A stretch of 64,000 nucleotides of DNA from a virus (IMGVR_UViG_3300035499_000522:72731-136730), one strand, 5' to 3'. Positions 4,218 through 64,000 are shown, counted from the stretch's first letter. Notes: generated by a model from the letters alone, not told the origin. Translations and numbers: made by a program.

Positions 4218-7200
4218 ATGACCTACCCCGGTAGTATCCATAATCATACTCAAATGTCGAACTTTCGCTTGAGAGATTGCATCATAAAGGAAGAAGATTT
4301 AATCAATAGGGCAATTGAATTAAATCATTCTGTGTTGGCTATCACTGACCATGAATCAATAGCTGCCGCAGTTAGAGTAGAAAAGTTATATAAGAAAGTT
4401 AAAGAAAAAAATATCCCATTGAAAATAATTATGGGAAACGAGATTTATTTATGTAGAGATGGCTTAAATAATGAAACTTATGTCCATGGAGAAGATAGGT
4501 ATTATCATTTTATTCTTTTGAGTAAAGACTTAATTGGTTTTCAACAAATATGTGAACTTTCTACTCGTGCGTGGATGCGTAGCTATAAAAGTAGAGGTAT
4601 TAGAAGAGTTCCTACATATTATCAAGATATTGTAGAAGTGATTGGGGCGAATCCCGGTCATGTTATTGGAACAACCGCCTGTTTAGGTGGAATGTTGGCA
4701 ACTCAGCTTCTTAAATATAGGGAAACAGAAGATGAAGTTTTGTGGAAAAAAATTCTTAATTGGTGTAATTTAATGAAGAATACATTTGGCGGCAAAGATT
4801 ATTTCTATCTTGAATTACAGCCTTCTGAATCAAAAGAGCAAAGTTACGTCAATAGAAAATTAATTGAAATTTCTTCAATATTAGACATAGATTATATTAT
4901 AACAACGGATACACATTATTTAACCAAAGAAGATAGACCTATCCATAAAGCTTATTTAAATTCACAAGATGGCGATAGAGAAGTCGATTCTTTTTATGCA
5001 ACAACTTATCTTATGGATACAGAAGAACTTGAATCTCATTTAGAGCTTTCAAGAGAAGAATTAGATAAGGCTTATAATAACATTTTAAAAATTCAAAATC
5101 TTTGTGAAGATTATTCAATATTAAAGCCTTTAAAAATTCCAAGCTTAAAATGGAATGATTATAGTTACATTGACGTTACAGAAGATTGGTTTGAAAAAAT
5201 TCCTTATTTAAGAACTTTTTACAATTCAGATTTTATTGGAGATAGAGTCTTAGTAAAAGCAACAATAGATGGAATTAATAAGCATTATGATTTGCAGAAT
5301 AAAGAAGCATATAATGAAATAAATAGCAATCTTGAAATGACTTGGATTTCATCTAATGTAAACAAAGCACATTGGTCAGCTTATTATCTTAATCTTCAAA
5401 AAATAATTGATTTGTGTTGGGAAGCAGATTCAATCGTAGGTCCGGGACGTGGCTCTGGCGTTGGTTTTATTCTTCTTTATGCTTTAGGAATTACGCAAAT
5501 TAATCCTTTGCGGGAAACTACAAAGACATTCTCTTGGAGATTCCTTAACCCAGAGCGTGTATCAGTATTGGATATAGATTTTGATATTGAAGGTTCTAAG
5601 AGAGATGCTGTTCTTCATAAGTTTAGAGAATTTTACGGTGAAGATAGAGTAGCAAATGTTACAACATTCAGAACAGAAAAATCAAAATCAGCAATACTTA
5701 CTGCCGCAAGAGGATTAGGAATTGATAACGATACGGCTCAGTATCTTGCAAGTTTAATTCCCTCAGATAGAGGACAGTTAAGAACTTTAAAAGAAGTTTA
5801 TTATGGAGATGTCGAAAAAGATTTCAAACCTGTTTCAGCTTTTGTTAATGCTATGAATAATGAGTATCAAGATTTATGGCAAGTAGCACAAAAGATTGAA
5901 GGATTAATATGCGGAACTGGTGTACACGCAGGTGGAGTAATTTTTGTAGATGAGCCTTTTACATTATCTACTGCATTAATGAGGGCACCAGATGGTACTA
6001 TTTGTACACAGTTTGACCTCCACGATGCAGAAGATGTGAGCCTTATTAAGTATGACGCACTTTCAGTCGAGGCTATGGATAAAATACACGCTTGCTTAGA
6101 TTTGCTTTGTGAACATAATTATATAGCAAAAGAAAAAACATTAAAAGAAACTTATGAAAAAGCTATTGGAATATATAAGTTGGATAGAGATTCCGAAGAT
6201 ATGTGGGAAATGATTTGGAATCATAAAGTGCTTGACTTGTTCCAAATGGAAAAACAAAGCGGCGTTCAAGGTATCGCATTGGCTAAGCCAAAAAGTGTAA
6301 ATGATTTAAGTGTACTTAATTCAGTTATTCGATTAATGGCACCTGATAAAGATAGTGATACTCCTTTGGTAACTTGGTCTAAGTACAGAGAGAATATTAA
6401 TCTTTGGATAGCTGAAATGAGAAGATATGGATTATCAGAAGACGAAATAGATTGGCTTAGTCATCATTCTGCTGTAACACAAGGCATCTGTGAATCACAA
6501 GAAGGACTGATGCAACTCGTACAAGAGCCAAGATTAGGCGGCAATTCATTGAATTTTGCTGACCGTTGCCGCAAAGGCATAGCTAAAAAACAAGGCAAAT
6601 TATTTCAAGAATGTGAAGATGAATTTTACGAGAATATAAAAAAGAATAATTGTTCTGAGAAACTTGCACATTATGTTTGGGATGAATTACTCAAGGTACA
6701 GCGTGGCTACTCGTTTAACAGGTTGTTGTGGCCTGTACAAGCTTAACCGTTTATCAACGGGGTTAGAAATAATTAGGTATTGGTAGTACCTGTTTCTAGC
6801 TAACGAGGGTAAAATCTCGTGTCAAATGAAAAGTAAATTAAATAAATAAGAAAGGAGGAATTTTATGGTTATTTATAAGATGACTAATAAAATTAATGGA
6901 AAATGTTATATTGGTCAAACTAAGAATTTTAAAATTAGAATGAATGGACATAAATCAGAAGCTTTCAATCCTAATGCAGTAGGATATAAATATCCATTAT
7001 CTAATGCAATTAGAAAATATGGGTGGGAAAATTTTGAGAATACTATTATTGAAGAAATTGACCCAACAGAATCTTACGAATATGTAGATGAAAGGGAAAG
7101 ATTTTATATATCTTATTATAAGTCTTTATCTAATGAAAATGGATATAATATTACTCTTGGAGGACAAGGATGTCCAAAAAAACCCTTAACATATGAAGAA

Positions 7201-9282
7201 CGCCTTCAATTAAGTAATATATTTAAAGCTGATGAAATTAAAGATATTCAACAAATGCTTAAAAATGGAGAACAAACAACCACTATTCGAGAAAAATATT
7301 ATCCAAGACTTTCTGTAAGTTTTCTTGATAATATTAACAAAGGATTAAATTTTAGAAATAAAGAATGGACATATCCACTTCGTGCAGAAGATATATCTCG
7401 TTCTAATTATTTTACTTCTCAAGAAATAAAAGATATTAAACAAGATATTAAAGACAATATGACTTATAAAGAAATTTCTGAGAAATGGAATATAAGTTTA
7501 GGAATGCTTTCTGGTATTAATAATGGTTCTATTTGGCATGATAATAATGAAAAATATCCTTTATGTATAAAGAGTCATTCTAGAAAACAAAATCTTGAAA
7601 CTTGGGTTAAATCAGTTCAATATGATTTAATGAATAGTAATTTACCTATGACAGAAATTGCTAAAAAATATGATAAAGCATATAGCACAATTAAAAAAAT
7701 AAATTATGGTCAATCGCACCATAATCCTGAATATCTTTATCCTTTAACTAAAAATAGAAAAAACTAATTTACTTTTCAAAATGATGTATCGACTATCTGG
7801 GGTTAGACCCAGAGTACTGGAACTATTGATACGTTCTGGGAAATAGCTTGCGGCCCACGAGCCAAACTACCAAATTGACTCGTCATAGAAAGGCTGTAAA
7901 AAATAGTCAGTTTTTAACAAAATGCACACTGCCTCGCTTACTCTCTGGTTGGTCTGCAAGAAATGAATTTAGCTTATAAAAATCCAACTTTATTTTGGAA
8001 TTGTGCGTGTCTAATATCTAATAGTGGTTCTCTTGAAGATAAAGGAACTACTGATTATAATAAAATGGCTAAGGCATTGGGCAATATTATTTCCGCAGGA
8101 ATTAACATATCTTTGATAGATATTAATAAATCAAAAGCAAGTTTTGAACCAAATGTTGAAGATAATAAAATTCTTTTTGGTTTAAAAGCATTAAGTGGAA
8201 TTAACTCTGAAACTATTGAAAAAATAGAACAAGGTCGTCCATATAGTGGAATAGTAGATTTTATGCGACGTTGCCCCCTTACAAAGACAACTATGATTTC
8301 CCTTATTAAAGCAGGAGCTTTTGATGAATTAGATAATCATTGGGCTTCTGAAATTAACAAAAAAGAACCAAGAAAAGTTATTATGGCTTATTATATTTCA
8401 AAAGTAAGTGAGCCAAAAACAAGAATAACATTACAAAATTTCAATGGATTGATTCAAAGAGGACTTATCCCAGAAGAATTGTCACCAGTAGTTAAAGTAT
8501 TTAGTTTCAATAAATTTTTAAAAGAACATATGAAGTATAAAACTTATTATATATTCAATAGCACTTGTCTTAAATATTATTCAGATAATTTCAGTCAAGA
8601 GAAAATAGAAATTGTAAATGGCAATCCTTGTATTCTTCAAACTGAATGGGATAAAATATATCAGAATGAAATGAACAAAGCAAGAGAATGGATAAGTAAT
8701 AATCAAGCAGAAATACTTAAAAATCTTAATATGTCTTTGTTCAAAGAATCTTGGGATAAATATGCTTCAGGAAGCATTTCACATTGGGAAATGGAATCTG
8801 TATGTTTCTATTATCACGAGCACGAACTCATTAATGTAAATAATAAAAAATATGGTATAGTAGATTTTTCAAGTCTTTCCGCAGATTCAGAAGTAGAAAA
8901 AACATTTAGAAAAAATGGCAGAAGTATTCCTATTTTTAAACTTTCTAAAATAGCAGGTACAGTTATTAGTAAAGATGATAATCATTCCACAGTAACTTTA
9001 TTAACAACAACAGGAGTAGTTGATGTAAAATTTTCAAAAGAATATTATGCAAATTACAATAAACAAATTTCAGAAAAAAATGATGACGGTACTAAATCAG
9101 TAGTTGAAAAAAGTTGGTTTAAACGTGGTGAAAAACTTTTGATTACAGGATTTAGAAGAGATGAGCAATTTGTAGCAAAAACATATGCGGCAACTATTGG
9201 ACATCAGCTTTATAAAATAACAGACATTAATGAAGAAACTGGCGATATTACAGTAATACATGAAAGGGCGGAAGTAGCTTAA
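4218..9282 (+). CDS. dnaE: DNA polymerase III alpha subunit (DnaE-type); exon 1 4218-6723, exon 2 7925-9282
   Basis: PHP motifs HNHT, AITDH, TTDTHY; GPGRGSG; catalytic DIDFD; HAGG. Splicing restores GYSFNRSHCLAYS. OB-fold C-terminus. No in-frame TAG. Confidence 0.93.
6724..7924 (+). ncRNA. group I intron in dnaE
   Basis: Exon end ACAGGU pairs with IGS GCCUGU (U.G at 6723). P7-type GACUA (~7791) / AUAGUC (~7903) elements. Terminal G 7924. Removal gives in-frame N-R-S-H. Confidence 0.9.
6865..7767 (+). CDS. intron-encoded GIY-YIG homing endonuclease
   Basis: VIYKMTNKINGKCYIGQT...R...H, ERE, GYN motifs, followed by repeated HTH-like DNA-binding segments; AAGGAGG SD. Confidence 0.9.
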   Translation: MVIYKMTNKINGKCYIGQTKNFKIRMNGHKSEAFNPNAVGYKYPLSNAIRKYGWENFENTIIEEIDPTESYEYVDERERFYISYYKSLSNENGYNITLGGQGCPKKPLTYEERLQLSNIFKADEIKDIQQMLKNGEQTTTIREKYYPRLSVSFLDNINKGLNFRNKEWTYPLRAEDISRSNYFTSQEIKDIKQDIKDNMTYKEISEKWNISLGMLSGINNGSIWHDNNEKYPLCIKSHSRKQNLETWVKSVQYDLMNSNLPMTEIAKKYDKAYSTIKKINYGQSHHNPEYLYPLTKNRKN

Positions 9283-59689: not shown

Positions 59690-60223
59690 GCCGAGGCAAA
59701 ACAAAATTACCAAAATTTCCCAGAGGAATCCCGAAATGTATGCCCCCACTAGAAACTTTGTAGCTTTTTATATCTCAAGAAAAAAGTTCTACTACATACG
59801 GTAGTTTCTACAAGAAACGTTCGCTAGCTTGGCGATTCGCACCGCCGCTTAAACACAATAACAGCTCTAACAAACAAGAATAAATAATTTATTAAACTTT
59901 CAAAAGAAGCTAAAGAAATTATAATTAAAGAAAAATTTGTAACAAAACAATTAACACTAACTTAGTTATTTACTTAATAAAAGTATAGACAAAAAGATAA
60001 AACAAAATAAAATTTAAAAATGGCTTACGCTCGGCACGGTTTCAGACAAAGCGTGCCGAGTGTTCTATTTATGAACAAACCGTGAATTTTTTATTAGCAA
60101 AATGTGAACAGAATATTGGCAGCCTAATTCCCACAAAATGGCAAATAATTACACACTTTGCCTTTGCAAGTTAGCATAAGCTAATCTTGCAAAACGTTCA
60201 TAAAAAGTTTACATTTAAACCTC

Positions 60224-60252
60224 TTGACAAACCTGCTCTTGTGTGTTATAAT
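60224..60252 (+). promoter_or_regulatory. sigmaA-type promoter
   Basis: TTGACA-17-TATAAT with TG extension. Confidence 0.8.
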
Positions 60253-60361
60253 AAAATAAGAAATTGACGCTAATGTTGAATGGTTCAATGGTAATTAATA
60301 CCAAACCAAAAGATAACATTGACATTAATTACCATACAAATCTAATAGGAGTTGTGATACT

Positions 60362-60640
60362 ATGATAGAAGTACAGATAACATTATTTACCAAAAGTGGT
60401 AAATACAGACCATTAAGCACAGTGGTAAAAATACCCAACAAAGAGTATTTTACTACCAACAGGCAGGATGTACTTAAGACAGCAATTATGCAAATTTGTG
60501 CACAAAGACATACTGAATATTGGTGTCTTAAAAGAGATGGCTACAACGAGTTTAAAGCAAGGGTATATGACAAAAATAAAATAGCGTCCGAAAATAAAGC
60601 AAGGTATGAGGCTATTAAAAAAGAACGTGGCTGGGCATAA
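60362..60640 (+). CDS. hypothetical early protein
   Basis: AGGAG SD; own promoter and terminator. Confidence 0.75.
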   Translation: MIEVQITLFTKSGKYRPLSTVVKIPNKEYFTTNRQDVLKTAIMQICAQRHTEYWCLKRDGYNEFKARVYDKNKIASENKARYEAIKKERGWA

Positions 60641-60647
60641 TTAACAG

Positions 60648-60682
60648 TAGGTCTTACTAAAATAATTAGTAAGACCTATGTT
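60648..60682 (+). terminator. terminator-like hairpin
   Basis: TAGGTCTTACTAA / TTAGTAAGACCTA. Confidence 0.6.
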
Positions 60683-60740
60683 GTGTCTGCTGTTTAAGCG
60701 TTTGAGGGCTTTCGAGTACAACAGCATCAATCCACTTCAT

Positions 60741-61435
60741 CGCTTTAAAGTGCTAAAGCGTTAAAATGTTTTTGTAAAGCTTAACGATAAATGTATCAAA
60801 ATTTTTCCCACAACTATTTGATGAATGTATGTTGCAAGAATTACCAAATACTACCAAGTGAGTCCGATTCACCGCTTTAAAGTGCTAAAGTGCTAAAGTT
60901 TTGTAAAAAAATGGTAAACCTGCTCACAAGGCTAATTCCCATAAATTGGCAAGAGAGAGCGAAAAGAACAAACGTTCACTTTGTTAAAAATTTAACAATC
61001 TCAGGGGCAACCACTTTAACGCACTAAAGCGTTAAAGTATTGTACTACTGTATTAGTACAGCTGATACACTTGCTTGTGCTATTGTATTAGTACAGTAGT
61101 ACAAAGAGAGACAGACAGCAAGAGAACAAACGTTTGATAAATTGTGTCTTTCAGTGAAGGACACTTTAGTACATTAAAGCATTGAAGCAAACACTTGTTC
61201 TGTGCGTCAGCGATGGACACACAGTTAGCACAAACTAACTCATTGTTAATAAATTAACAATCTTTGTTAAAAATTTAACAAGCAATTAGCATAGACTAAT
61301 TAGTTATAGATAACTAATTGTACTATTATACTAATACAATAGCAACAATTCAAACAGTAAGATGCTGATTATTGTACTAATACAATAATACAATAGTACA
61401 GTTTCATCACCGACAGCGTTTACAAAACGTTCATA
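60741..61435. repeat. dense cluster of operator-like palindromes (at least 5 motif families)
   Basis: CRCTTTA-N6-TAAAGYR x4, TTGTTAA-N4-TTAACAA x3, GTTAG-N6-CTAAC-like x3, TGTACTA-N6-TAGTACA-like x5, GAAC-N4-GTTC-like x3. Confidence 0.8.
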
Positions 61436-61556
61436 AATCTTTAAGAAAAAGTATGTAGATTACACTATAGCAAAGTAGTATAATAAGTATAGTAAAAGAA
61501 AGCAAGAACTAAATAAGTTGAATGCTTTTGAAATCTAATACATTAATTGAAAGAGG

Positions 61557-61844
61557 TTGTTTATTATGAGAACAAAGATTATTGCTGTTGTTGCTATTTC
61601 ACTTTTTGGTGCATTTTGCACCGCCTGCCACAATGCACCCGTCACCCGCACAGAAAGCGGTGTTGCTACCAAAACTTACTATGATGATGGTGAGGTAAAA
61701 ATTACCACTACTGACGGCAACGAGTGGATACTTGAGAACCGTGCTGACATTGCAGACGGTACAATGGTAACAGTGTATTTTAATACCCACAAAACAGAAA
61801 CTCTTGAGGATGATACCATTACCAAGGTAATAGTTGTTAAGTAA
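61557..61844 (+). CDS. small lipoprotein/secreted protein, possibly OB-fold
   Basis: Signal peptide MRTKIIAVVAISLFGAFCTAC (lipobox-like); TTDGNEW...TVYFNT...DDTI. Confidence 0.65.
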   Translation: MFIMRTKIIAVVAISLFGAFCTACHNAPVTRTESGVATKTYYDDGEVKITTTDGNEWILENRADIADGTMVTVYFNTHKTETLEDDTITKVIVVK

Positions 61845-61915
61845 AAAATAAGGCGGTGACTGTAAGATGCCAAAAACCAACAGTCACCGCTGAATAAGAA
61901 AAGAGGTTTTTTACA

Positions 61916-62158
61916 ATGTGTGAAATTCATGTAATTTACTGCTATGATGAAAAGCTTTGTTTGACTGGAAACACTGTTGCGGAAGTCATTAACAAATTTA
62001 TCTTTGAAAATAATCCGCTTGAGATAAAAGAGGAATATTTCCAGCACATAAACAAAGTTGACAATATGAGTTTAACAGAATTCATTAACCTTGTAGCGAT
62101 AGAAATCTTAATTAAAGGTATTTTTTGTCTTAATGATGAATTGTATCTTGCTATGTAG
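61916..62158 (+). CDS. hypothetical early protein (ends at TAG; to 62176 if read through)
   Basis: GAGG SD; terminator hairpin at ~62176-62212. Confidence 0.6.
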   Translation: MCEIHVIYCYDEKLCLTGNTVAEVINKFIFENNPLEIKEEYFQHINKVDNMSLTEFINLVAIEILIKGIFCLNDELYLAM

Positions 62159-62416
62159 ATACAAACAAAGTTTTGAAAGATAGGGAATAATTCCAAATAT
62201 TTCCTATCTTTTCTCTGCTGTAAAATGATTACCAAATTTGGAAATCGCTGGAAGTGACTCCGAAATTTCCAGTATTTTCCAGTATTATTACAATTTTGTT
62301 AAGAAAAAATTTGATTGCCGAAAGAGCCAAAATTCCCAAAATTAGGCAGTTAGCCTATGCTAACTCTAACTTGTAACATTAAATTATGAACTTTTTGTTA
62401 ATTCTCAAAAAACCTA

Positions 62417-62445
62417 TTGACAAATTACTTGAAATATGTTATTAT
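62417..62445 (+). promoter_or_regulatory. sigmaA-type promoter
   Basis: TTGACA-17-TATTAT with TG extension. Confidence 0.7.
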
Positions 62446-62503
62446 TATAACAGTGGAAGTAAAGAAATACTTCCAAAAACCAAATTTTTACAATTGAGAG
62501 GAA

Positions 62504-62812
62504 ATGATGATTATGTTTAAAATCACAAGCACAAAGAACGGCGTTGTAAATGCTGAGGCTTCATATTCTAACCTTAAGGATGCGGTTGAATTGTTTGTTA
62601 ATGAACTTTACGATGCTGATTTTTGTAAGGTATACAATTACTTGACAGGAAAAAGACTTGACAATAATAAAATGGATATGATAGATGAAAGTGATGAACT
62701 TGTGGACGAATTAATTGAACGTTTAACAGAAGAAGAGGAATGGGAAATTTATGGCGGTGATGTTCTCATAGACAGCAAAAATAATTGGTGGATTGAAATG
62801 ACAATAGAATGA
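62504..62812 (+). CDS. acidic hypothetical early protein
   Basis: GAGG SD; followed by a GGCGG / CCGCC hairpin. Confidence 0.7.
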   Translation: MMIMFKITSTKNGVVNAEASYSNLKDAVELFVNELYDADFCKVYNYLTGKRLDNNKMDMIDESDELVDELIERLTEEEEWEIYGGDVLIDSKNNWWIEMTIE

Positions 62813-62849
62813 GAATGTGGGCGGAAATGAAAAATCCGCCCTTGCTTTT

Positions 62850-62865
62850 TGTTCCACGTGGAACA
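62850..62865. promoter_or_regulatory. parS site (ParB/Spo0J binding)
   Basis: Perfect palindrome TGTTCCACGTGGAACA; one mismatch to Firmicutes parS TGTTNCACGTGAAACA. Confidence 0.8.
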
Positions 62866-63109
62866 TTTTCCAAATTCTTCCAATTGACAAAAATACCAAA
62901 AATTTCCAGTGCGGTTGACGCACTCCGAAGCCGCACTTTAGCACTTTAAAGCGTTAAAATCTTTTTGGAAAAATTTCCCATACAACAAATGTGCTATTCC
63001 CAAAATTTTCCAGCACGATGGGCGTAGCCCGAAATTTCCAATATTTACCAGTTTTACCAAAAAATTTACAGAAAAAACTGCACACTGTTTAAGTGTGCAG
63101 TTCCTGAAA

Positions 63110-63125
63110 TGTTCCACGTGGAACA
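63110..63125. promoter_or_regulatory. second parS site
   Basis: Identical TGTTCCACGTGGAACA 260 bp downstream. Confidence 0.8.
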
Positions 63126-63293
63126 TTAAACTATTGTTAAGTCAATTTCAACATCTTTTGCGGTTCTCTCGAAACCTTCCAAAATGTCATCTTTGTGAGT
63201 AGCTTTCTTTCTGTTAAATTCTTCCAGCGTCTCACATTCATCTATCTGCAAAAGTCCTCTTTCGTCCCTGTAAATAATTGCATAAATTTTCAT
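63126..63293 (-). CDS. small hypothetical protein (55 aa)
   Basis: GAAGGA SD; promoter TTGCAA-17-TATAAT at 63399-63371; terminator AACTGCACAC / GTGTGCAGTT at ~63072-63102. Confidence 0.65.
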   Translation of the reverse strand: MKIYAIIYRDERGLLQIDECETLEEFNRKKATHKDDILEGFERTAKDVEIDLTIV

Positions 63294-63739
63294 AATTACC
63301 ATTTCCTTCCAAATTTTAATTTTTCCACTTTTTAGGAATTCTGCATTTCTGCATTATTTCCACTGTTATCATTATATCACATTACAATATATTTTGCAAG
63401 GCTTTTTTCAAGAGTTTACAAAAAGTTCACAAATTAATTTTTTCGTCGGCTCTCACGCTAACTTTGTTAAATTTTTATCAATCTCAGCAGTTAGCTTGCC
63501 CTAACTGCTAATTACCAAAATTTTCCAAACTTCCGACAGAACCAAATTTCCAATTTTTTCCATTTAGCAGTTAGCTTATTCTAACTGCTAATTTTGGAAA
63601 TCGCTGGAAGTGACCCCGAAGTAGCGAATTAATTATGAACAAATCAATATTTTTTTGTGAATTTTTTGTAAACAATTTGTGAACAAAAGTCCCGTTATTA
63701 TGCACAATAATAGAACAAACATTTTGTACATTTTGCATA

Positions 63740-63768
63740 TTGACATTTTGCTGATTATGCGGTATAAT
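63740..63768 (+). promoter_or_regulatory. sigmaA-type promoter with no substantial ORF downstream
   Basis: TTGACA-17-TATAAT. Confidence 0.65.
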
Positions 63769-64000
63769 ATAATAAAATATGAATAGTATGCAGTTGGGAA
63801 TGAATGGTAATGGAAAAGTCTTCCATGACTGTAAGTTTTTGGTATTCCCTGTCGAATGGTAATTTTTACCAATTCTGTCAGCTTTTGGGACTTCCAGTTC
63901 TTACCATTTCTTCCAAAAGCTGTGACTGCCAATATATAGCAGAAATGGCAAGAACTGTATATGGGTTCATATGGCAGAACTTCCAAGAGCTGGAAGTGGC

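Follow-up and report, generated by a model that had tools for sequence, protein, structure and literature searches.

Arrays of host-type repressor operators in the non-coding early DNA of a phage genome and their possible role in titrating host regulators

The early region at the end of the phage record IMGVR_UViG_3300035499_000522 (IMG/VR; 136,730 bp) is crowded with short sites. Five unrelated palindrome families (a to e), one family of direct repeats (f) and two parS sites follow one another in DNA lying between small genes, which raises the question of whose proteins bind this array and what a phage would gain from carrying it. The window analyzed is the whole stretch formed by the final 64 kb of the record (72731-136730), and coordinates refer to this window unless they are marked as genome; sites were located by pattern matching, and promoters were located by consensus scanning. 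Families a to e and parS very probably correspond to host-type operators, the likely host group being the Bacillota and probably the Clostridia, and titration of host repressors is the function that we tentatively place first.

Palindromes with up to one mismatch were counted in the window and compared with dinucleotide shuffles. Family a was represented by 4 sites (0.14 expected), family b by 4 (0.28 expected), family c by 6 (0.10 expected) and family d by 5 (0.13 expected), and for all four families the observed count was not reached in any shuffle. When the whole 136.7-kb genome was scanned, families a and d and parS were confined to the array region, family b had a single copy outside it, and family c had five further copies in the continuing early region, at genome 3590-3951 and 11051. 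With exact 6-mer arms, a and b were the sole spaced palindromes with at least three copies in 136 kb, and the extended LexA-type word RGAACAnnYGTTY occurred three times in the whole genome, always within 60965-61201. Recognizable sites cover about 64% of the segment from 60965 to 61435. All the sites listed in a previous sequence-only reading of this DNA were present, displaced by no more than 1 to 2 bases, and inspection bore out its description of conserved arms separated by variable spacers. Consensus scans of the genome for CodY, Fur, PerR, Zur, CIRCE, CtsR, cre, TnrA, DnaA and Spo0A sites revealed no clustering in the array region.

Relatives of the phage were traced via a neighboring late gene for a 369-amino-acid (aa) protein, the anchor protein, which rendered 78 IMG/VR contigs plus 11 contigs binned in metagenome-assembled genomes (MAGs). 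These MAGs, mostly Bacillota (Erysipelotrichaceae, Eubacteriales, 'Bacilli', Clostridium and Acutalibacteraceae), were the entry points to the bacterial genomes used for the host-site tests.

Family a is an 18-bp palindrome, TTGTTAA-N4-TTAACAA, present as three exact copies, one at 60981-60998 and two lying 3 bp apart at 61243-61281, together with a copy with one mismatch at 63464-63481. The Rex consensus published for Clostridiaceae (PMC9600882) has exactly this sequence. Exact boxes were also found in Acutalibacteraceae, the family of MAG G005, with 9 matches versus 1 for the reversed control, and they preceded ldh and three adhE-type aldehyde dehydrogenase genes, one of them in G005 itself. 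Family a is thus predicted to be a clostridial Rex-type operator.

For its part, the exact form of family b, AGTTAGC-N4-GCTAACT, was present in 28 of 301 genomes of one class, with about 48 matches versus 3 for the reversed control. Each genome held one to four exact sites, often in pairs 34 bp apart. Twelve of 28 sampled sites were located directly upstream of feoA-feoB, at 40 to 330 bp; others preceded a ZIP transporter, a Peripla_BP_2 binding protein, an ABC ATPase and three DUF3793 genes, and a gene for a 126- to 129-aa DtxR-family protein (PF01325) lay 100 to 300 bp from the sites in four of five genomes. Given these feoAB, metal-uptake and DtxR-gene neighbors, family b appears to be the operator of a short DtxR-family iron/metal repressor controlling feoAB. 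The classical IdeR/DtxR box spans 19 bp, with GTTAG and CTAAC half-sites 1 bp apart, a geometry that family b does not share, its half-sites being 6 bp apart (AGTTAG-N6-CTAACT). It would therefore belong to a separate, short DtxR-family branch and not be a classical iron box. In the phage, exact sites were found at 61223-61240 and 62348-62365, and a further two (63489 and 63569), 80 bp apart, occupy a divergent intergenic region (63489-63586). Three sites are degenerate, with two mismatches each: one at 60169-60186, upstream of the early promoter P2, and two at 61284 and 61302 (61284-61319). Separately, many Bacillota genomes (loci L094, L093 and L113-L126) were seen to contain one and the same cassette, formed by a gene for a 126- to 134-aa DtxR-family protein, paired boxes 34 bp apart and feoA-feoB.

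Family c, which the sequence-only reading had left without assignment, is a 20-bp palindrome, cacTTTA-N6-TAAAgtg, found 6 times in the window and 11 times in the genome when up to one mismatch is allowed. It is the putative operator of HisR, the TrpR-family histidine repressor. The Firmicutes HisR consensus is cacTTTAnnnnnnTAAAgtg, which was validated in vitro with HisR from R. gnavus, histidine stimulating the binding (PMC9413887). Among the MAGs, a family c site was found within two near-identical promoters of G005 and after a promoter in G520, and these sites preceded a PF04392-type (hisXYZ-like) ABC transporter and glyA. A Trp_repressor gene was present in G005 and G602 and was not found in G003 and G601. 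In the window, the sites comprise an overlapping pair shifted by 8 bp (60733-60760), sites with an 8-bp periodic extension (60865-60900), a site with an 8-bp extension (61012-61039), a site with one mismatch (61162-61181) and a site between the two parS copies, in a convergent zone without a promoter (62934-62953).

Family d, in the form TGTAYTA-N6-TARTACA, occurred in 43 of 151 Clostridia genomes, with about 53 matches versus about 15 for the control. Seven of nine open reading frames (ORFs) adjoining these sites encode GntR proteins of 123 to 142 aa, and the one downstream ORF tested encodes an ABC ATPase. Doubled half-sites are common to the bacterial sites and to the clusters in the phage, where five sites with up to one mismatch are arranged as a cluster of three palindromes, two of them overlapping (61041-61103), and a pair starting at 61319 and 61373 (61319-61392); both groups together form an inverted repeat of 27 to 29 nt around the central block. 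Family d was absent from five MAGs that hold related phage contigs. These data point to an autoregulatory operator of small YtrA-type GntR regulators.

Family e would correspond to the clostridial LexA-type (Cheo) box, GAAC-N4-GTTC or its clostridial variant ending in GTTT. Its three sites, of the form RGAACAnnYGTTY mentioned above, are AGAACAAACGTTC at 60965-60977 (GAAC-N4-GTTC), AGAACAAACGTTT at 61123-61135 on the plus strand and AGAACAAGTGTTT at 61189-61201 on the minus strand. The operator forms reported for clostridia are GAACnnnnGTTC and GAACnnnnGTTT (PMC4234289). The site at 61123 has the latter form and, by comparison with the same source, is close to the recA operator of C. difficile. 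The two parS copies, TGTTCCACGTGGAACA at 62850-62865 and an identical one at 63110-63125, represent a fully symmetric variant with one mismatch to the published 16-bp consensus, TGTTNCACGTGAAACA. Both are located directly 3' of terminators, and together they flank the convergent zone without a promoter. No match to ParB_N or to AAA_31 (ParA type) that might reveal a cognate parA or parB was found in the phage record, and any ParB acting on the phage sites would be that of the host, as in phi29 (PMC2731898).

The assignments agree with those of the sequence-only reading, which had matched family a with Rex and e with LexA, had named DtxR-type metal repressors and YtrA/GntR regulators among the candidates, here assigned to b and d, and had listed the parS pair. 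Its argument that one phage repressor could not account for the array also holds, since several unrelated geometries are present, each with a distinct host counterpart. We infer that host proteins, and not phage proteins, occupy the sites.

Arrays made of these boxes, or of different host boxes, are present in related phages. Seven host-box families were counted in the equivalent region of 69 related loci; one or more of them reached three copies in 22 loci, and two or more did so in five loci. The family makeup varies from phage to phage. Maxima were 14 copies for b, 7 for a, 24 for HisR (in locus L091) and 8 for LexA, and locus L029 combines LexA and b arrays. The b arrays of the relatives were phased at 20 or 40 bp. 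Exact boxes were kept in phages whose anchor proteins are 40 to 67% identical, b being kept at 40%. Two relatives have peculiarities of their own. Locus L066 (600-3900) contains 16 sites resembling the CodY box, the consensus of which was confirmed, including four copies each shifted by 9 bp, which we take to be the known layout of overlapping CodY sites. Locus L029 (5000-9400) contains 33 near-consensus sigma-70 promoters in 10 kb, many of them as divergent pairs with b arrays in between, and almost no ORFs.

What the array does was judged from the position and number of its sites. None of the 231 array sites in the 22 related loci overlapped a consensus promoter core, such cores making up 14% of the non-coding DNA (predicted by consensus with up to one mismatch, weak promoters not being counted). 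In the window, as had been described, the sites are mostly off promoters: only the family d site at 61319 touches a weak promoter-like match, and the family f sites abut promoters. The family c site at 62934 is flanked by convergent terminators, and no promoter is near it. Boxes of these families in bacterial genomes do overlap promoters or the regions in which transcription starts. As for number, the 11 HisR sites in the phage compare with about 1.6 HisR-controlled operons in each host genome (635 across 387 genomes), the four exact and three degenerate b sites compare with the one to four exact sites in the sampled bacterial genomes, and the five d sites compare with mostly one per genome in the sampled Clostridia. 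On the basis of these site numbers and of promoter avoidance, titration is favored over classical promoter control, and we assign a probability of roughly 0.45 to its being the main function of the array.

The array would then act as a sink that grows with the copy number of the phage genome. If host repressors bind it, a replicating phage would outnumber the chromosomal sites by orders of magnitude and would pull the repressors off the host chromosome, so that his, feoAB, Rex-controlled and ytr-type genes would lose repression. Histidine supply, Fe2+ uptake, NADH-reoxidizing fermentation genes, an ABC-transporter operon and SOS genes could be derepressed, to the benefit of phage replication, and, as in phi29, host ParB would be loaded at the parS pair. 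All the proteins identified are repressors that bind in replete cells. Their titration would therefore imitate starvation, with increased uptake and biosynthesis, an effect that would suit this phage, the carrier of an iron-sulfur-dependent anaerobic ribonucleotide reductase. Going one step further, and still more tentatively, the array might constitute a protein-free takeover device, a non-coding operator library that, with replication of the genome, jointly sequesters several low-abundance host repressors (HisR, the DtxR-type repressor, Rex, the YtrA-type regulator and LexA) and so drives the cell into a pseudo-starved, high-uptake, high-biosynthesis state that feeds phage DNA synthesis, the operator set being swapped among related phages to match their hosts. 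If true, such a device would do with DNA in cis what auxiliary metabolic genes do. Regarding the sequence-only reading as a whole, its view of several unrelated host-regulator-like operator families stands; the titration or reading of host state that it proposed is neither shown nor refuted.

Several observations weigh against titration by host repressors. With an estimated completeness of 86% for the phage record, and with orphans making up most of its early ORFs, some phage DNA-binding proteins may have escaped recognition, and missing Pfam matches are not proof of their absence. The links between MAGs and hosts rest on binning, and the host counterparts of the different families were found in different bacterial groups and not in one genome. 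No HisR gene was found in two 'Bacilli' MAGs holding contigs of HisR-site-rich phages, MAGs that are maybe misbinned or incomplete. A strict version of family c (7-mer arms, ACTTTAA-N4-TTAAAGT) showed no enrichment in 121 genomes of the order of G005, with 6 matches versus 7 for the control, and only the G005 and G520 sites look real. Finally, all the sites lie in the early region, a placement that a regulator needs and a pure sink does not, and both the 20- and 40-bp phasing in relatives and the location between divergent promoters would also fit a regulatory nucleoprotein complex.

The last of these points lead to the explanation that we rank second and consider less probable, namely, that bound host repressors act as sensors, insulators or roadblocks, coupling early transcription, or read-through between small promoter-terminator units, to the redox, iron, histidine, envelope and DNA-damage status of the host, with titration as a side effect. 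The arrays are all in the early region, either downstream of a terminator and ahead of the promoter that follows or flanked by divergent promoters, and they are phased in relatives as described above. Moreover, the big operator block immediately precedes a promoter whose -35 box is weak (read from the sequence; -10 at 61479-61484) and which would serve the genes at 61566-61844 and 61916-62158.

Family f also speaks for such coupling, since each early promoter is preceded at a fixed position by its repeats. No other family is linked to promoters. Family f is a direct repeat, TTHAYA-N5-TTHAYA, whose layout is presumably that of the PhoP/OmpR type, OmpR being among the regulators named in the sequence-only reading. 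Six f repeats were found in the array region, five of them 11 to 21 bp upstream of the -35 box of an early promoter. That at 60197-60213 (plus strand) lies 11 bp upstream of the -35 box of P2, a consensus sigma-70 promoter (60224-60252, plus strand, 12/12) for the gene at 60362-60640, and that at 61419-61435 (plus strand) precedes the weak promoter just mentioned. The f site at 62385-62401 (minus strand) is located 16 bp upstream of P3 (62417-62445, plus strand, 11/12), the early promoter of the gene at 62504-62812, and that at 63415-63431 (plus strand) is 16 bp upstream of the leftward early promoter at 63371-63399 (minus strand, 10/12) for the gene at 63126-63302. Two overlapping repeats with an 11-bp period (63656-63683, minus strand) lie 57 bp upstream of the consensus early promoter P4 (63740-63768, plus strand, 12/12). 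It was also observed that the P3 region (62375-62462, plus strand) and the leftward-promoter region (63354-63441) form an 88-nt inverted duplication, 75% complementary, which includes the f sites.

Against a sensing role, none of the 231 sites falls on a consensus promoter core, the family c site at 62934 has no promoter nearby to regulate, the early promoters are perfect sigma-70 consensus sequences that need no activator, and 5 to 24 copies far exceed what promoter control requires. Besides, repressors that bind in replete cells would repress the phage under the best growth conditions. The precedent for sensing comes from the virulent Bacillus phages phi29 and Nf, which carry host Spo0A boxes and five parS (Spo0J) sites (PMC2731898), that is, sites for host DNA-binding proteins on a virulent Firmicutes phage. 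In common with them, the phage studied here is apparently a virulent phage of a Gram-positive host with putative sites, parS among them, for host proteins that it does not appear to encode, and in phi29 and Nf such sites exploit the state and the segregation machinery of the host. Unlike phi29, which has boxes for a single factor family, Spo0A, near promoters for repression, this phage shows no Spo0A enrichment and contains sites for at least five repressor families plus parS, in arrays of 3 to 11 copies that avoid promoter cores. The placement of boxes on repressed promoters seen in phi29 was thus not observed, either in the 22 loci or, apart from the d site at 61319, in the window.

Titration and sensing both treat the bound proteins as regulators. 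They could instead serve as an architectural or entry platform, resident host proteins bound at the first-entering or origin-proximal end helping to pull in, anchor, compact, replicate or segregate the genome (as an injection stop, ratchet, origin or centromere-like element). This explanation is improbable and ranks below the two former. The region lies within 4 kb of a contig end that overlaps the contig start by some 369 bp, the GC-skew minimum coincides with the divergent transcription switch at about 58.9 kb, and two parS sites are present. In T5-type phages, similarly, a repeat region without genes borders the terminal repeat on its inner side. Nevertheless, the region contains no DnaA box, and the phage yielded no Pfam match to ParA or ParB. 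Specific, low-abundance metabolic repressors would be odd choices for a mechanical role, and the families differ even between close relatives.

Still more improbable is the binding of phage-encoded proteins with host-like specificities, at ordinary or stoperator-like operators that would resemble host boxes through mimicry or by chance. Numerous repressor sites are present in cluster A mycobacteriophages, and most early ORFs of the present phage belong to no recognizable family; among the 49 early ORFs scanned, there was one weak winged-helix match, in a 206-aa ORF (genome 12207-12827, minus strand). Five unrelated geometries would, however, require five proteins, and the phage record contains no Pfam match to the Rex DNA-binding domain, DtxR, MarR, GntR, HTH_3 (XRE), ParB_N or AAA_31, nor did PHROGs and Pfam searches of the small early ORFs reveal any DNA-binding family. 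Phage repressor-operator pairs usually diverge, whereas the exact boxes persist at 40 to 67% anchor identity. No convincing partner gene emerged from a co-occurrence test of site families and phage ORF clusters in 79 loci, although flanks of differing length confound this test. An origin of the arrays by capture of host promoter fragments was rejected, as it explains neither 5 to 24 copies with conserved arms and varied spacers nor their 20- or 40-bp phasing.

Host-factor sites on virulent phages are therefore already known, and what appears to be new is the combination. Literature searches found no natural phage transcription-factor sponge and no multi-family, promoter-avoiding arrays of host metabolic-repressor operators, the term 'DNA sponge' retrieving only synthetic-biology papers. 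A host DtxR operator controls tox of corynephage beta, and LexA boxes are present on temperate phages such as GIL01 and CTXphi. There, too, host DtxR or LexA binds phage DNA; those operators, however, are one or two sites over one promoter, controlling one gene or the lysis-lysogeny decision, and here multi-family non-coding arrays occur in an apparently lytic phage. The action proposed for the array, that is, many high-affinity sites on a multicopy replicon lowering the free concentration of a DNA-binding protein, is shared with known titration loci: the E. coli DnaA sink datA, the 'handcuffing' of plasmid iterons, the Fur titration assay and synthetic 'DNA sponge' decoy arrays. None of these is a phage device directed against several host metabolic repressors at once. 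Many short sites in early or terminal DNA outside genes also make up the stoperators of cluster A mycobacteriophages and the injection-stop repeats of T5. In the former, a single asymmetric type of site is bound by a repressor that the phage itself encodes, and the T5 repeat region has no assigned host regulators except for DnaA-like boxes, unlike the palindromes of this array, which match named host regulons.

Should titration prove true, phages would reprogram host metabolism by DNA sites alone, unseen by gene-based annotation, and the extended 'non-coding' early regions that many large phages possess might be accounted for in this way. The operator set would predict the regulators that a host must have and would thus serve as a host clue for uncultured phages. 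As a by-product, two new candidate host regulon motifs were obtained, the short DtxR-family/feoAB box and the YtrA-type autoregulatory box. A single 770-bp fragment (60.68-61.45 kb) holds putative sites for five regulators.

With regard to the genome that carries the array, the contig ends overlap over about 369 bp with one mismatch and one indel (63632-64000 versus genome 1-369), and the genome is therefore probably circularly permuted or terminally repeated. IMG/VR labels the record as linear; it is probably a circular assembly or has a terminal repeat. Late genes occupy 15.6 to 58.8 kb on the minus strand, where almost no long ORFs are found under table 11. Reading TAG as Gln (code 15) restores the portal, terminase-like, 3219-aa and other late genes; genes for replication and the small early ones contain no in-frame TAG. 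The DNA polymerase gene is interrupted by a gene for a GIY-YIG homing endonuclease (6865-7767). Two consensus sigma-70 promoters at about 58.9 kb drive transcription in opposite directions, and from there small plus-strand genes run to the end of the window and on through genome 1-12,000. Most of these genes are each equipped with a consensus promoter and a terminator and match no PHROG or Pfam family, and the coding share of 58.9 to 64.0 kb is only about 40%. In the early region, no tRNA was found, nor any Rfam family beyond two subthreshold miRNA look-alikes due to the palindromes; a structured-RNA interpretation of the region was dropped because the palindrome arms are conserved rather than covarying. 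No GenBank phage matched the region by blastn.

Other repeated words were observed between the operators. One further family, absent from the sequence-only reading, consists of TTYCCA, which reaches 12 words per kb at 62150-63650, the densest stretch of the genome, versus 1.7 per kb genome-wide, often in direct pairs 10 bp apart (62266/62276, 62997/63007 and 63547/63557). A 31-nt repeat beginning with TTTGGAAATCGCTGGAAGTGAC is present in two copies with 94% identity in the spacers at 62234-62264 and 63590-63620, and a 24-nt repeat, AGSCTAATTCCCAYAAAWTGGCAA, is present in two copies with 88% identity in the spacers at 60121-60144 and 60929-60952. Lastly, the product of the gene at 61566-61844, which is driven by the weak promoter directly 3' of the big operator block, begins with MRTKIIAVVAISLFGAFCTAC, a lipoprotein-type signal peptide as read from the DNA, and is a candidate surface or superinfection-exclusion protein.

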